DNA of 43,391 nucleotides from Bradymonadales bacterium. GTDB lineage: Bacteria > Bdellovibrionota > UBA2394. The stretch covers positions 1-43,391 of the forward strand of contig REDG01000052.1 of the NCBI GenBank assembly GCA_007693605.1, read 5' to 3'. The position numbers are program-made. This document shows positions 21,001 to 30,000 of this stretch, in pieces (the stretch's first letter is position 1; every line of letters begins with the position of its first letter).

Positions 21001-24000
21001 AAGTGCAGATCTTTGAACTCGACTCCACGAAGGTGGATCCCGATTTTGTTAAGCGTTTAGGCTATAGAATGTTGGAGCTTGAAGCTTGGGAGATTGATGA
21101 CAGCTTAGAGTCCTATCTTTTGGCGGGGGCTTTGAGTTGGATGAAGTCCCTAAAGGAGGAGTCTTTGAAGATTCTCTTTTGGAGTTTCTCGTCGAGAGCG
21201 CGCCGCCCTTTGGTTTTGCAAAACTTGAAGCCTGGAGCCTTCGAACAGCGTCCGCCGAAGCGAGCCAGGCATTGAGTTCAGAGGTCGGATAGATCGATGG
21301 AGCTCCATCGACTTCGCTAGTCTGGCACTTCCGTCTCCCGACCCCTTCTAGCGACCCCTTCTAGCGGGGTTTGACATTGATTTGAGTCTTCGGAGGAAGA
21401 AGATTGGCTTCGGGGCGGCCTAGAAGGAAGCCCTGGCCATAGTCGCAGCCTTGCTGTCGAACCACTTCAAGCTCTTCTTCCTTCTCAATTCCCTCTACTA
21501 GAATCTTGGCCCCAATTTTTCGAGAGATATCAGAAATCGCTTTCAGAAGCTCCAGTTTGACCGAGTTCTCGTGAATGTCTCGAATAATGGAAAGATCCAC
21601 CTTCACATATTGAGGCCGTAGATTTGCGATAGCCTCAAGGCTGCCGTAACCTGAGCCAATATCGTCTACAGCCAAACCGAAGCCCAGGCTTGAGAAGTAA
21701 TCTTGCTCTTTACGAAACAAACCATAGTTTTCAATCGCAACTCGTTCCGTCACTTCGAAAACGATATTGTTCCCCTCGAGTCCATTGCTCTTCAGAAGTT
21801 GTGCAAGAGCTTCTCCTCGAAACTCTGGGTCGTGCATCGTGGCCGGAAAGGTATTCACAAAGAGTTTCTGATGTGCGCCCAGGCCCTTGATGTTCATCAG
21901 GGCCTTTCTTCTACAAAGTCGATCGAGTTCAAAAGACAGGTTCGTCTTGTCGGCCACACCAAAGAGCATCAAGGGGCTCTCCATCGCACTGCCCTCAGGC
22001 CCTCGGGTGAGGGCTTCGTAGGCAAAAATCTCGCCTGTGCGTAGATCGACAATGGGCTGATAAACTGTGCGAATGTTTTCTTCGATAATGATCTCTTTCA
22101 GAGACTCATGGACTTGCACCATGAAGCGGTCTCCGTTAAATCGAGCAACCGATCGCCCCTGTTCAATGAGGCGGTAAACGGTTCGTTCAACAGAAAGCAA
22201 TGGGTTAAAGACAGTATAAGAGTAGCCGATGTCTGCTTTTAATATTTTCTTAGTGTAGGGAAAGGTGATCTGAAAAATTTTGGCGTTCAATGAGCTTGCG
22301 AAGCGGTCAATGATGAGCTGAAGATTGTCCATCTTCAGAAAGTTTGAGTATTCTCCCCTTTGGCCCGACAAAAACAGCAGGAAGTTTTCGTCGTTCTGGT
22401 TCCTTGAGCAGAGAATGTCGTCCTCTCGAATCAGATGCCCCTTCAGCTGGCTAATCGTCTCGATGGTTTGATCCAGAACTTCGTTGTAGAGGGTTTGACC
22501 ATAATCGTATTCAATCTTTCCCAGGTCGGATGCGTCGATATAGATCAATCCGAGAGCCTTACTCTCTGTAAGAGTCTGAGCCAATTTGGGCATATACTGA
22601 CAAAAGGGGTGAAGACCTAAGGCTGAGGCCTCGGCTTCGGCTGCTCCGGACGATCTGTTCCTCCGATTCGGCTTTTGACTCACGAACTACACTCCCCCAG
22701 TCTTTAAGCTCAGGCGCACGAGAAGCCCCACCCAACGGCCGTTTAGATACCCACCGCCCTGAAACTCTCTCAAATTCTAGTCTATCTTAAAACTCTGCCG
22801 CTGGGCAGCCCTCTAGAATCTCCCCCAAACCTCATTCTGAAGACAGGCTTTCGGGGCGTCAAACGGCAAAGACAAAATTCTCATAAGCTTGAAATTCTTC
22901 ACATTTTGTTCAAAATCCGCTCTGATAGGGCTGCATGTCTTTAAGAGTTTTTCTTCGCATGGGCTGCGCAAAGTGTAGCCACTCCGCATTAGTTTGCGGC
23001 TTAGTTTTCTGCACTTCAATTTTTTTGAGTCTGGCCCTACATCTTCCGCTCGGCTTTGCAGAAGAGCTCAGTCCGGAGATCGAACCGAGGCTTTACAGCC
23101 TTTCTGAGTTGATTCAATTGGCGGAACAAAACGAAGCTTTGTCGGCTCAGATCTCTGCAGAAGCTCGACTCGCTCGAGCAAAAAGACGGCAAGTCGAGAT
23201 GGAGTTGTGGATGAACCAGTTGGACCTTAGAGTCTTGGGGGGAGTAGTGCCGGATGCGCGAGTCGATCGATCGAGTGCCGATGCCTTTCTCTTTGATTTT
23301 CAGTCGAGCGATTTTCAGAATGGCTTCTCTTTTAGTGAGTTGGGTCCTTTCGTCTCAATGGAGTTGAGGGCGGTGCAGCCCGTTTATACTTTCGGAAAGA
23401 TCTCGGGCTATCGTGATATGGCAGACGCGAATGTGCGGCTGACTCAGGTCGATCAAAAGAAAGAGCTGGTGACGACTCGGCAAATGTTGAGAAAGGCGGT
23501 CTACACATTGCAGCTTTCGCTGGAGGCCAAGTCACTACTGACCGATGTCAGAAATCGACTCAACCAAGCGGAAGAAAAAGTGGAGGAGTTGCTTTTGGAA
23601 GGGGCCGAAAATGTGGAAGAAACGGACCGCCTGAAAATCGGTGTGTTTCGGGCTGATGTGGAAACCAGGGCTCTTGATGCCTTAAGAGGAGAGCGAGTGG
23701 CTCGAGCTGGAATTGAAGAGCTCACCGGAGTTTCAGGAAACTGGGAACTGAGCCAAATGCGTCTAGAGGCCGAGCAACTGAGCAGCCTATCTTGGGAGAA
23801 TCTTTGGGCCAGGGTGATTGAAGGTCGGCCAGAGATTCAAAAGATTGATCAGTTTATCGAAGTCAAGCTCGCTGAGAGAAAGACGATTCGTGCCGACCTC
23901 TATCCGGACCTCTTTGTGGCCGGAGAGCTTCAGTTTGCTCGAGCACCTGGCAGAGATCGAGTGAAGCACCCCTATTTGAGCGACAACTTTAATCGCTTTC

Positions 24001-27000: not shown

Positions 27001-30000
27001 CCTTCAACAGAATCATCAATCCGAGAGTTCGAGAAGCGAAGAACCAGGAAGAGGGCCGTATGGCAGGGCTTTCGGAGCTGATTGAAGCCATGTCCAATCG
27101 TTTGGCCGAACTGCAATCGGGGGGAGCGACTCGCCTGTGAGAAGTTCGTTTTCAAGAACCGCATTTCGCTCCGTCCTCTGCCTTTGTGTGTTTCTGTACC
27201 CACTGACTTTTTGGGAGCCAATGGCGGCAGACGAGGCGGCTTCAAAGGCCAATTCGGAAGGGACTTCGCAGACATCGGTTTCTAGCGAGAAGAGTCAGCA
27301 GGCATCAGAGGCGCAGCCTAAATCCAGTCCTCGTTTCTTTGGTAGTCATCAGGGGCAGCGCCATTTTCAGTTGAGGTCTGAGAATCAGACGATTGGAAAG
27401 GCCGCGTATCGCTGGATCGAAACAGAAGAGAATTTCATTCTAGAAGAAGAGTCTCAGATCAAGGTCACGATGATGGGAATGGTTCAGAGAATCCAGACTC
27501 GGGTTGCCTTGGTTCTCGACTTCGATCGACGGATTCAAAGCTTTGATTATATGCTTCGGACGGGGGATTCTGAGGCGAGAATTAAGGGGCGAAGACAGGC
27601 TGGGAAGCTTCGTGTTGAAAAAGATCAGGCGAACTCGCGACAGTCTTTGGACATCGAAGTTTCTGAGTCGATTGTGATTGGGGGCCCTATGATTCGACTG
27701 GCCGCTCTATCGCAGGGTCTTCCTCCTGCAGGAAAAGAAGTGAAAGAGATGCAGGTTCTGATGTTTGAACCCTCTCAACTGGCCGTGGTTCCCATGAAGG
27801 TCCAGCTGCGGAGTTCTTCGCAGGCGGGTCAGTTCGATTTGACACTCCGCTATGAAGGCCAAGAAATTCACAACCGCATTAGTCGAGACGGCAATCTCTT
27901 AGAAGAAAGAATGATGATCCCTCCTTCTTTACCCGTGGTGGCAACTCCTTTGGAGCCGAAGGCTTATGAGAATTTGAATATTGTGGCCTCGAATTTTGAT
28001 TTGGTGGAGGCATCGAGGGTCGCCTTCCCAACGATTCCAAATCCAAAGGAGCTCAGGTCGCTTAAGGTGCGCGTGAGTGGTGTAAACTTGAATGATTTCA
28101 ATTTTGCACGGCACCGCCAAAGCCTAGAGGGAGATCTCTTAGAGATTCGCGTAGAGGAGATTCCGGATCGTTCAGCTCCGGTTCAGTCTTTAGTCGGAAG
28201 GAATGATCTTTCCGCCTATCTTCAAGGAGATTTTTTCATCCCCGTTCAACATCCTGACATTCAGCGAAAGGCTAGAGAAATTGTCGGGGCAGAGAGTGAT
28301 TTGTGGAAAAGGGCAAGACGAATTCATGATTTCGTTTATCAAAGCCTTGATAAGAGACCCTATATTTCTCTTCCTGACGCTATCGAGACTTTGCAGAGTA
28401 GAGAGGGGGACTGCAATGAGCATGCCGTTTTGTTTACCGCTTTGGCGAGAGCGGCGGGAGTTCCCACGCGAATGGTGATCGGTTTGGTTCATTCGAATAC
28501 CACCATGAGTTTTGGTGACAATTCCCGGCCTGTAGAGAATCGGCCCGGCTTTTACTACCATGCTTGGGTTGAGGTCTTTAACGGCTATGAGTGGATTTCG
28601 ATGGATCCAACCTGGAATCAGATTCCCGCAGGGGCGACCCATATCGCTCTCATTGAGGGCTCTGCAGCCGAGCAAGTCAAGCTCGTGGGCCTAGTTGGGA
28701 ATCTTGAGCTTTCTCTTGTCGAGATCCAAAGAAAAAGCAATCTTTGACGAATGCCTAGGGCGGCCGCTCTTGAATTTCAATGTCAGTCTTGTGAGACGGA
28801 GTTTCCGAAGTGGTTCGGAAAGTGCCCCGAATGTGGCGAGTGGAACTCTTTGCTTCGTCGTGAAGAGAAAAAGAAAGCGTTAAAGCCCAACTCACGCGCT
28901 CGGCACTGGATGGAGCTGAAAGCGCCGAGCCTCACCGAGCATCAAAGTTTTGAGTTGGCCTTCATTCAGCGCCTGCTCGGTGGAGGCTTGCCACGAGGGA
29001 GTGTCGTGTTGTTGGCGGGTCAGCCTGGCGTAGGAAAGAGCACTCTACTCTTTCAGACCTTCGCGTCTTCCTCTCAGAAGGTTCTCTTTGCATCGACCGA
29101 AGAGTCGGAATCTCAGCTGGCCGTTCGATTTAGAAAGTTCTGTCGAGATGAGTCTGCTCCCTTCTTCGTCATGTCGACTTCTTTGTTGGAGGATATCTTG
29201 CAAGAAGCGGATCGACTGGAAGTGGATACGGTCGTTGTAGACTCCATACAGATGTTGGGCTCTCGCTCGAGTTTGCAGAGCCGTTGGGGCGCAGGCTTGA
29301 TGCGCGAACTCTCTGACGAGTTGGTTTCACAAGCCAAAGCAAAGTCGAGAAGCCTGTGGATTGTGGGCCATGTCAACAAGGAAGGTGAGATCGCGGGGCC
29401 AAAGACTCTCGAGCATCTGGTTGATTGCGTGTTTCTATTCTGTGGTTCAGACGACCCCAGTGTTCGGAGCTTGCAAGTTCAGAAGAATCGATTTGGCCCG
29501 TCAGGAGAGTTGGCCTTGCTGCGAATGGAAGAGAAGGGTCTCACCGAAATTCCCAACCCAGAGTCCTTTTGGATGCACCAGTATTCAAAGTCGGTACCGG
29601 GTTGTGTGTATTGTCCGATTCTGTTGGGCAGTCGTGTTTACTGCGTAGAGGTCCAGGCTTTGTGCGCGGCGACCGCCTTTCCCTCGCCCAGACGAACCGT
29701 TTCTGGTTTTGATCTTCAGCGACTTCATTTGATTCTAGCTCTTCTTGAGAAGAGGTTAGATTTAAGGTTTTCAGGCCTTGATGTGTATTTGAATATCGTC
29801 GGGGGATTGAAGGTGGAAGATACCGCTGCCGATCTGGCCGTCGCTGCCGCTCTGATTTCTGCGATAAAGAATCAAGCTTTTCCGTCTGAGAGGGTTTTCT
29901 TGGGGGAACTGGGTTTGACCGGAGAGATCCGCTCGGTGCCGGGCGTCAAACAGCGGCTGGAGGCTGCCGCCCGGGTCGGCAAGCAATCTGCGGTGTTTCC

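Follow-up and report, generated by a model that had tools for sequence, protein, structure and literature searches.

A predicted phosphatidylinositol synthesis locus between TolC-family and MlaC-fold genes in a class of Bdellovibrionota in which lipid A and Lpt genes were not found

Introduction

The bacterial route to phosphatidylinositol through a phosphatidylinositol-phosphate synthase (PIPS) is described for mycobacteria, with PgsA1 (PMC6506517, PMC4634129), and for Bacteroides, with BT_1526, BT_1523 and BT_1525 (PMC9246714). The latter paper also cites the production of ceramide phosphoinositol by Myxococcus xanthus. Among systems in which a tolC gene is linked to mla genes, the minimal long-MlaD system of Veillonella carries tolC after mlaEFD, has no MlaC and belongs to a bacterium that keeps LPS, and long forms of MlaD have been linked to MlaC-independent bridges (PMC10665443). 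The dataset of that paper, on Mla distribution in 1083 genomes, may be relevant to the MlaC/MlaA pattern.

Diderm bacteria lacking LPS are treated in three papers (PMC9393093, PMC13721041, PMC11784454) and include Sphingomonas, which has glycosphingolipids, Borrelia, Treponema and lpxC mutants of Caulobacter. PMC11784454 reports that Lpt was repeatedly kept after LPS loss, and presents the filling of the outer leaflet in such diderms as an open question for which retained Lpt is the current suggestion. A full-text literature search, mostly at title and abstract level and with few subscription papers, gave no report of inositol lipids or LPS loss in the uncultured class studied here (UBA2394, Bdellovibrionota), nor of a TolC-MlaC pairing, and PMC8067016 does not mention LPS, inositol or UBA2394.

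Results

The window is the whole 43,391-nucleotide stretch of DNA analysed, contig REDG01000052.1 of a metagenome-assembled genome (MAG) which is 90% complete; MAGs of the class range from 76% to 98%. A first-pass annotation had described a single run of five genes here, and all five open reading frames were recovered on the + strand between 22935 and 28747 (Table 1). The run does not stop at 28747 as had been proposed, since it continues on the same strand into radA after 3 bases and into a lytic transglycosylase gene after a further 52. The gaps separating tolC, ino1, the PIPS gene, mlaC and the transglutaminase-like gene are 118, −35, 25 and −4 bases, and the start codon of the PIPS gene, whose reading frame overlaps the end of ino1, is uncertain. 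A promoter and terminator scan of the locus gave counts close to those expected by chance (4 vs. 4.1 and 10 vs. 12.6). Three metatranscriptome runs had no reads on the stretch, a result that carries no weight as a test of expression. Recent horizontal transfer of the five genes was considered and rejected because their G+C content (0.49–0.53) matches that of the genome (0.494).

Table 1. Genes of the same-strand run in the window.
Feature	Position	Strand	Evidence
TolC-family (OEP) gene, distinct subfamily genetically paired with MlaC	22935..24392	+	PF02321, E 4e-19
Ino1, predicted myo-inositol-phosphate synthase, short actinobacterial/archaeal type	24511..25635	+	PF01658; 1GR0 homology
PIP-synthase-like CDP-alcohol phosphotransferase	25601..26353	+	PIP synthases as top PDB hits, E 3e-21
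Predicted periplasmic lipid carrier of the MlaC fold, with a signal peptide	26379..27140	+	PF05494 above cut-off; fold model
Transglutaminase-like protein, exported (predicted)	27137..28747	+	PF01841; alignment; fold model
radA/sms, housekeeping	28751..30073	+	TIGR00416, 373 bits
LysM lytic transglycosylase, final gene of the same-strand run	30126..31892	+	PF01464, PF01476

The order ino1-pips-mlaC-transglutaminase, which had been claimed as conserved, was upheld in the relative loci, where the successive adjacencies occur in 12/12, 10/12 and 11/12 cases. The two exceptions between pips and mlaC are a methyltransferase insertion and a contig end, and the mlaC-transglutaminase order is also found, on separate contigs, in the two remaining relatives. 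tolC precedes ino1 in 11 of the 12 loci (the contig ends in the other) and radA follows the transglutaminase gene in 9. Ino1 is present in 13/14 and MlaC in 14/14 class genomes. Ino1 is not special to the class, being found in 40 of 108 other genomes of the phylum, and Ino1-PIPS also occurs in LPS-positive members (5 of those 40 ino1 loci).

The Ino1 protein matched the mycobacterial enzyme 1GR0 at E 1.5e-121, with full-length homology and the PF01658 domain, and scored 476 bits against TIGR03450 (cut-off 638); this strong homology predicts a myo-inositol-phosphate synthase. The PIPS carries the signature D101xxD104GxxAR109...G118xxxD122xxxD126R127, and the catalytic motif DxxDGxxAR...GxxxDxxxD is intact in 12/12 full-length class enzymes. 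Residues Y162, R164, K166, R181-P-E-R184 and R236 map onto the mycobacterial inositol-phosphate site. With regard to the mycobacterial pocket (R94, S132, Y133, K135, R137, R152, P153, R155, R195), the class equivalents are basic or identical except at S132, which corresponds to P161 in the window and to proline in 10/12 class members. Scores fell below the curated NCBIfam cut-offs, those models being lineage-specific (NF045883, 121/170 bits; NF052561, 128/350; NF040950, 137/180). Together, Ino1 and an intact PIPS-like enzyme give well-supported grounds, from sequence, for predicting synthesis of phosphatidylinositol or its phosphate, in agreement with the first-pass annotation. A PgpA-like phosphatase, which would convert PIP to PI, was not found in the source genome.

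The product might instead be soluble di-myo-inositol phosphate (the first-pass annotation had named a soluble inositol osmolyte as a possible refutation) or an inositol sphingolipid. Such products involve the same enzyme superfamily, the PIPS matched the IPCT/DIPPS model weakly (44.7 bits), and another family of the phylum carries an SPT-like gene and one resembling PI-ceramide synthase. However, in the phylogenetic tree the enzyme fell among stand-alone PIPS and not with IPCT/DIPPS-type domains. No inositol-phosphate cytidylyltransferase (IPCT, osmolyte route) was found in the 90% complete source genome, where none of five NTP-transferase matches, among them MurU, RfbA, IspD and GalU types, scored as IPCT. 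Homologues of SPT, the sphingolipid start enzyme, and of PI-ceramide synthase were likewise not found there, and we consider either product highly unlikely.

Genes for lipid A and its transport were not found in the class, a context which the earlier reading of the locus had missed and which makes the locus matter. LpxC was detected in 0/14 class genomes vs. 106/108 other genomes of the phylum, LptF/G in 0/14 vs. 52/52 and LpxK in 0/2 vs. 3/3, while LpxB above cut-off and LptA/LptD_N were each found in 0/14. A six-frame search of the source genome with profiles of phylum homologues gave no LpxA/B/C/D/K/L, WaaA, KdsB, heptosyltransferase or LptF/G, and the same search did detect BamA, Skp and LolE. 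The lpx block is missing in mid-contig after lysS-lolE-lolD-bamA-skp, and lpxC is missing after ruvB. As BamA, Skp and LolDE are kept in the source genome (BamA was searched for in that genome only) and lipid A genes were not found in the 14 MAGs searched, the class is best read, from its gene content, as an LPS-free and Lpt-free diderm.

The MlaC of the window scored 56.9 bits against PF05494 and was the sole match in its genome. A single-sequence PDB search found nothing, whereas a profile search did find a match. The model (pLDDT 89.6) matched MlaC structures in Foldseek and VIA-align, with Z 16.6 and an rmsd of 2.8 Å over 174 residues to 2QGU; a signal peptide is also predicted. MlaC is present as a single copy in 13/14 class genomes, so that a second, housekeeping MlaC was not found in those genomes. 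The MlaA lipoprotein gave no PF04333 match in the source genome, which thus lacks a detected canonical six-part Mla system, while a mlaE-mlaF-mlaD operon lies on contig C78 with neither mlaC nor tolC, and a 274-residue PqiB/PqiC-type system on C50.

The TolC-family protein has a signal-like hydrophobic segment at residues 17–35 by hydropathy, and its solved relatives are distant (E 1e-16 or weaker). The tolC gene directly adjoins mlaC in 14/39 non-class loci of the phylum and in 40/69 outside loci (41 by script, one having PIPS between), and most such pairs belong to mlaEFD or MMPL operons that lack ino1. The pairing of this TolC subfamily with MlaC is old and widespread, far beyond the class; it is present in cultured Geobacter species and, with an MMPL pump, in the complete phylum genome G115.

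Inositol-type CDP-alcohol transferases lie near the TolC subfamily in 9/69 outside loci, four of them as tolC-PIPS(-mlaC), and the linkage of inositol-lipid genes with MlaC/TolC thus recurs outside the class. In one family with LPS, the catalytic motif is no longer present in the PIPS that adjoins mlaC-tolC. LpxC was absent in the four outside tolC-PIPS genomes; it was not found in 7/9 and was present in 2/9 outside genomes with a transferase link to TolC, and was absent in 2/6 without one, these absence calls being made without completeness estimates in both groups. LptF/G was found in 0/15 genomes of one outside class with the link. A quick TolC tree grouped the three LPS-less tolC-PIPS lineages together (SH-aLRT 88, not starred), which may reflect one event rather than three. 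The PIPS tree gave no resolved branching for the four outside genomes with tolC-PIPS relative to the class.

Is the carrier then reserved for phosphatidylinositol, as the first-pass annotation had it? MlaC, with TolC, serving this lipid alone would fit the class-wide synteny, the recurrence of inositol genes beside mlaC, tolC or MMPL genes, and the co-occurrence of MlaC and Ino1 among the other 108 genomes of the phylum (32 with both, 54 with neither, 14 with MlaC only, 8 with Ino1 only; kin not independent). Against this, HpnN or Mla partners have to rely on that single MlaC as well, TolC-MlaC stands beside an MMPL in G056 and G115, where Ino1 was not found, and no cargo-specific feature was identified. 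We regard exclusive use as improbable. The link of inositol-lipid genes with MlaC/TolC recurs in outside loci, but the words "own" and "dedicated" find no support for a carrier whose pairing with TolC is mostly seen in operons lacking ino1, in genomes which also make hopanoids needing a carrier.

The RND exporter HpnN has a proposed shuttle, HpnM, and MlaC could be the functional HpnM partner of HpnN-like pumps, with hopanoids as its main cargo. Squalene-hopene cyclase (SHC) is present in 12/14 class genomes, and the source genome encodes HpnH and two HpnN-like pumps. HpnM (TIGR03481) is the only NCBIfam match of MlaC, also matches 55/58 of the TolC-linked MlaC set, and no other HpnM was found in that genome. 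However, the score reached 22 bits where the cut-off is 160, mlaC is not beside hpn genes, and both genomes of one genus (89% and 95% complete) lack SHC yet keep mlaC, which makes hopanoids as the main cargo distinctly improbable. The pump at C13:4712-7171 adjoins hpnH, a position that speaks for hopanoids as cargo and counts against the reading proposed below.

Another possibility is a housekeeping retrograde Mla system that is completed by the C78 operon and whose outer half, tolC and mlaC, has become detached; ino1-pips would simply have landed between these two genes, phosphatidylinositol being an ordinary phospholipid that needs no route of its own. In outside loci mlaD-tolC-mlaC is contiguous in 26/69 and ino1 is present in 0/69, and the source mlaEFD operon lacks just those two genes. 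In most TolC-MlaC loci there is no inositol gene and the setting is an mlaEFD operon of an LPS-type bacterium, so that the insertion may be neutral, and unrelated genes stand in the same run; with radA and a bystander transglutaminase in it, co-location is weak evidence here. On the other hand, MlaD is 452 residues long in the source genome vs. 146–166 in those operons, the long form being the one tied to MlaC-independent bridges; inositol-type transferases of two different kinds, and an Ino1 of another type, joined the pair in separate lineages; and without LPS there would be no LPS/phospholipid asymmetry to restore. We consider neutral insertion somewhat unlikely.

The transglutaminase-like protein has an invariant Cys426-His475-Asp490 in the alignment and, in the model and fold search, a beta-sheet domain at its N-terminus that resembles DUF1849/LolA-type folds. 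Distant homologues outside the class precede an ABC ATPase, and 0/70 lie next to mlaC, ino1 or pips. Its inclusion as a part of the system was therefore rejected as unsupported; it is likely a co-transcribed bystander.

Discussion

We propose, with a probability of roughly one in two, that in this class, where the searches showed no lipid A or Lpt genes, the operon makes phosphatidylinositol or its phosphate, and that this lipid reaches the outer membrane together with hopanoids and further phospholipids by way of the shared TolC-MlaC pair. Ino1 would convert glucose-6-phosphate to inositol phosphate, as its strong homology suggests, and PIPS, judged by its motifs, would join this to CDP-diacylglycerol. 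The HpnN-like MMPL/RND pump on C13 would probably load MlaC, because it is the closest relative in the source genome of the pumps flanking mlaC-tolC elsewhere (12 of 17 such pumps score best on it) and because MlaD is there the long, bridge-type form. MlaC would then cross the periplasm to the TolC-type protein, which gene pairing suggests as an outer-membrane dock replacing MlaA, and by analogy the anionic inositol lipid and hopanoids would take the place of LPS. The outside genomes with a transferase link in which LpxC was not found (7/9), and the lost PIPS motif in the LPS-positive family, speak for the proposal. All of the evidence is genomic and from incomplete MAGs, which counts against it, as do the PIPS scores below cut-off, the replacement of S132, the Ino1-PIPS loci of LPS-positive phylum members and the possibly single origin of the LPS-less tolC-PIPS lineages.

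A more far-reaching version, which we put forward tentatively, is that the clade dropped LPS as well as the Lpt bridge. Hopanoids and phosphatidylinositol, the latter perhaps in decorated form, would then make up its outer membrane, with an MMPL pump and MlaC bringing them to a TolC-type channel that releases lipid at the outer leaflet. If true, this would be an Lpt-independent way of filling the cell surface. A class in which lipid A and Lpt genes were not found, yet which has BamA, Lol and hopanoid genes and carries phosphatidylinositol genes between MlaC and TolC, points to a specific alternative route and cargo for that leaflet, and the Geobacter and G115 carriers make the TolC-MlaC route testable without culturing the class.

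As in the described PIP-synthase route, an Ino1 stands with a CDP-alcohol phosphotransferase that bears the signature motif and, S132 aside, residues that would form the basic inositol-phosphate pocket; the locus differs in that the source genome has no detected PgpA-like phosphatase or PI-ceramide synthase, in the position of the genes between TolC and MlaC, and in a host where LPS genes were not found. Myxococcus xanthus is likewise a former delta-proteobacterium with an inositol lipid, but one on a sphingolipid backbone, and we know of no transport link for its ceramide phosphoinositol. As in the LPS-lacking diderms, the outer membrane would be without lipid A and probably contain another anionic or glyco-lipid, although here LptF/G and LptA/LptD_N were not found, and no sphingolipid start enzyme was detected in the source genome. 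The MlaC fold and the separate mlaE-mlaF-mlaD operon recall the E. coli Mla system (MlaFEDB, MlaC, MlaA-OmpC/F), from which the source genome differs in the lack of MlaA, the pairing of MlaC with a TolC subfamily and the long MlaD. Veillonella similarly links tolC to mla genes, but without MlaC and with LPS. HpnN and the sterol transporter BstABC (PMC11713862) likewise combine an MMPL/RND pump, a periplasmic carrier and an outer-membrane component, whereas here a TolC-like protein takes the outer-membrane place instead of a lipoprotein, the pump lies outside the operon and the predicted cargo includes phosphatidylinositol.

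Conservation of the operon

The five genes which the first-pass annotation had described (tolC, ino1, pips, mlaC and a transglutaminase-like gene) were confirmed by sequence and domain comparison of the window, and form a tightly spaced same-strand run extending into radA and a lytic transglycosylase gene. G000, the genome under study, of which the window is C68, is 2.19 Mb in size and 90% complete, and its class, UBA2394, comprises 14 genomes of a single family. Among 12 ino1 loci fetched from relatives, the only breaks in the claimed gene order, with tolC at its head, were contig ends and one methyltransferase insertion. 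The transglutaminase gene was also downstream of the two remaining class mlaC genes, and followed mlaC in 10/10 close metagenome loci. Two further genes near the operon are conserved in most class loci (Table).

The transglutaminase carries an export signal and an intact Cys-His-Asp triad. A fold search with its predicted model showed that the N-terminal domain resembles DUF1849 (target TM 0.61) and, weakly, LolA, and a lipid-binding role for this domain is conceivable. Because none of 70 distant homologue loci (41 of them at least 5 kb) contained mlaC, ino1 or pips, the protein is treated here as a probable bystander of the lipid system. These distant homologues (L317-L386) almost always have an ABC ATPase downstream, often with a 550-600 aa gene as well; by gene order, homologue and ATPase are a separate conserved module.

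Inositol enzymes and their probable product

The alignment between Ino1 and the mycobacterial enzyme covered the full length (E 1.5e-121). The putative PIP synthase (PIPS), a CDP-alcohol phosphotransferase, scored under the curated family cut-offs and is distinct from the pgsA and pssA products of G000; its closest matches among solved structures are PIP synthases. The catalytic motif and RPER were kept in 12/12 full-length class PIPS, and the inositol-phosphate-binding residues, as assigned in the relevant parts of PMC4634129 and PMC6506517, were kept or conservatively changed except for S132, a proline in 10 of the 12. IPCT, of the CDP-inositol osmolyte route, was not found among five NTP-transferase matches in G000 (four scored against NCBIfam, the fifth GlmU-sized), nor were serine palmitoyltransferase (SPT), PI-ceramide synthase or PgpA found in this genome. 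Since PIPS-type motifs are intact and IPCT, SPT and PI-ceramide synthase were not found, PI(P) on diacylglycerol is the likely product; the first-pass annotation had proposed phosphatidylinositol.

Inositol genes also occur beyond the class. In the phylum, 40/108 genomes outside it had Ino1; among the 40 ino1 loci read, PIPS adjoined ino1 in five, ino1 lay near TolC and an MMPL pump in two, and ino1-PIPS lay near MMPL in four. Two loci of another family (L157, which also holds a PI-ceramide-synthase-like gene, and L140) have gene sets which likely lead to inositol sphingolipids. A class-III aminotransferase beside ino1(-PIPS) at three loci, some also with a Gfo/Idh/MocA oxidoreductase, could point to an amino-inositol head group.

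MlaC, TolC and the inner-membrane partner

The predicted MlaC fold of the window carrier is secure. The carrier had been proposed to be dedicated to PI, which was not borne out because a single MlaC is present in 13/14 class genomes, G000 among them, and the TolC-MlaC pair is widespread without ino1. In a 120-genome phylum sample, 46 genomes outside the class were MlaC-positive; of their 39 loci read, 14 had a TolC of the same subfamily directly beside MlaC and one more had it within 3.3 kb. A species-genome scan gave 179 relatives of the window TolC, and the best 80 of these were kept (11 class-type, 69 others). Among these 69 loci mlaC was within the locus in 49 and immediately downstream of tolC in 40 (a script counted 41, but PIPS intervenes in one of them), mlaD-tolC-mlaC occurred in 26 (Geobacteraceae, Nitrospirota and others) and MMPL in 10, while ino1 and transglutaminase occurred in none. 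Comparative gene order thus indicates that TolC-MlaC is an old, general pair. Two loci carry a weakly MlaC-like protein besides a normal mlaC (Table).

MlaA was not found in G000, which encodes three MMPL pumps and, besides mlaE-mlaF-mlaD (MlaD 452 aa), has a second operon, MlaEFD-PqiC. MlaD measured 146-166 aa in mlaD-tolC-mlaC loci (29 proteins), and the section of PMC10665443 on long MlaD treats it as a bridge functioning without MlaA/C. Loci with TolC, MlaC or ino1 supplied 17 MMPL pumps, and for 12 of them the best G000 match was an 819-aa pump on contig C13, its gene tail to tail with hpnH; the other five scored best on the HpnN-like pump. Squalene-hopene cyclase was present in 12/14 class genomes. 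From these data we infer that the likeliest wiring is one exporter in which an MMPL pump, MlaC and TolC would carry mixed cargo.

Inositol genes recur beside this pair. Within the same best 80 of 179 relatives, four outside genomes had PIPS directly behind tolC, each with ino1 at another place, and IPCT/DIPPS-like transferases lay near TolC in five more; their position in or beside tolC-mlaC-MMPL clusters suggests a coupling of this transporter to the CDP-inositol route as well. Long-type Ino1 followed mlaC-tolC in one phylum genome. At five loci of one LPS-positive family mlaC-tolC was followed by a PIPS relative with a decayed catalytic aspartate motif and an RPER-like motif kept, possibly a pseudo-enzyme or lipid-binding subunit.

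Features of the window, G000 contigs and other loci (L)
Feature	Location
Operon, + strand	window 22935-28747
Divergent MreB-like gene; 443-aa protein weakly like PLP-dependent ACC deaminase	window 18777-21275
Maf-type flagellin glycosyltransferase, PseB-like dehydratase	window 32490-35394
Region after skp; no FabZ homologue found in G000	C14:6276-7144
Weakly MlaC-like protein (425-437 aa) between MMPL and tolC	L212:4618-5895; L217:5592-6905
ino1-PIPS adjoining MMPL, mlaE, long mlaD	L157:1-7600; L140:4300-12440
SPT-like gene, genome of L140	L304:14675-15919
Aminotransferase beside ino1(-PIPS)	L082:6655-11281; L144:5626-9539; L165:3782-8763
IPCT/DIPPS-like transferases, other phyla	L220:6794-12907; L252; L262; L217; L263
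Degenerate PIPS relative	L088:8857-9453; L092:3301-3897; L098; L099:216-788; L101:3763-4365

LPS and Lpt genes

LpxC was found in 0/14 class genomes versus 106/108 other phylum genomes, LptF/G in 0/14 versus 52/52 and LpxK in 0/2 versus 3/3. LpxB over cut-off was found in 0/14 (one weak sub-threshold match), as was the LptA/LptD_N domain, a figure without within-phylum control. The class MAGs are 76-98% complete and absence here means not found, yet the pattern repeats itself in 14 genomes and at several unlinked loci. Using homologues from phylum relatives, lysS-lolE-lolD-bamA-skp was detected on C14 and ruvCAB on C32; the lpx block and lpxC, downstream of these genes in relatives, are missing mid-contig. 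Six-frame profile searches of G000 gave no LpxA/B/C/D/K/L, WaaA, KdsB, heptosyltransferase or LptF/G, weak LpxA/D matches being rejected as other hexapeptide proteins. The glycosyltransferase and dehydratase in the window (Table) indicate that sugar-nucleotide pathways would persist without LPS. No FabZ homologue was found in G000 with three phylum FabZ queries and their profile, which may reflect a MAG gap or another dehydratase; the window does carry fabG and fabF, and fabZ usually lies within the lost lpx block.

Outside the class, LpxC was not found in 7/9 genomes with an inositol-type transferase by TolC and 2/6 without one (completeness not given for either group). In the tolC-PIPS lineages (G122, G124 and the class of G123) it was not found in 4/4 tested genomes, and LptF/G was found over cut-off in 0/15 genomes of the G123 class. 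In a quick TolC tree (48 rows selected from loci read) the class and the four tolC-PIPS genomes fall together (SH-aLRT 88), so LPS genes may have been lost once, in a common ancestor.

Comparison with known systems

Lack of LPS is also a feature of certain intracellular alphaproteobacteria and of Sorangium. Groups known to make PI are Actinobacteria, Treponema and Bacteroidetes, and an inositol ceramide has been described from Myxococcus (PMC9246714; PMC10191378). LPS-free diderms are known (PMC9393093, PMC13721041), and sterol and hopanoid exporters of the RND-carrier-outer component type have been described (PMC11713862). Literature searches gave no report on the envelope of this class or on TolC-MlaC pairing. 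The account of MCE neighbourhoods in PMC5561183 does not mention TolC where consulted, and the Negativicutes described in PMC10665443 have tolC after mlaEFD, without MlaC. PMC11784454 stresses that Lpt is repeatedly retained after LPS loss; in this class LptF/G and LptA/LptD_N were not found. The tolC-ino1-pips-mlaC locus owes its importance to being the best candidate for the route by which a diderm without LPS or Lpt would supply its outer membrane.
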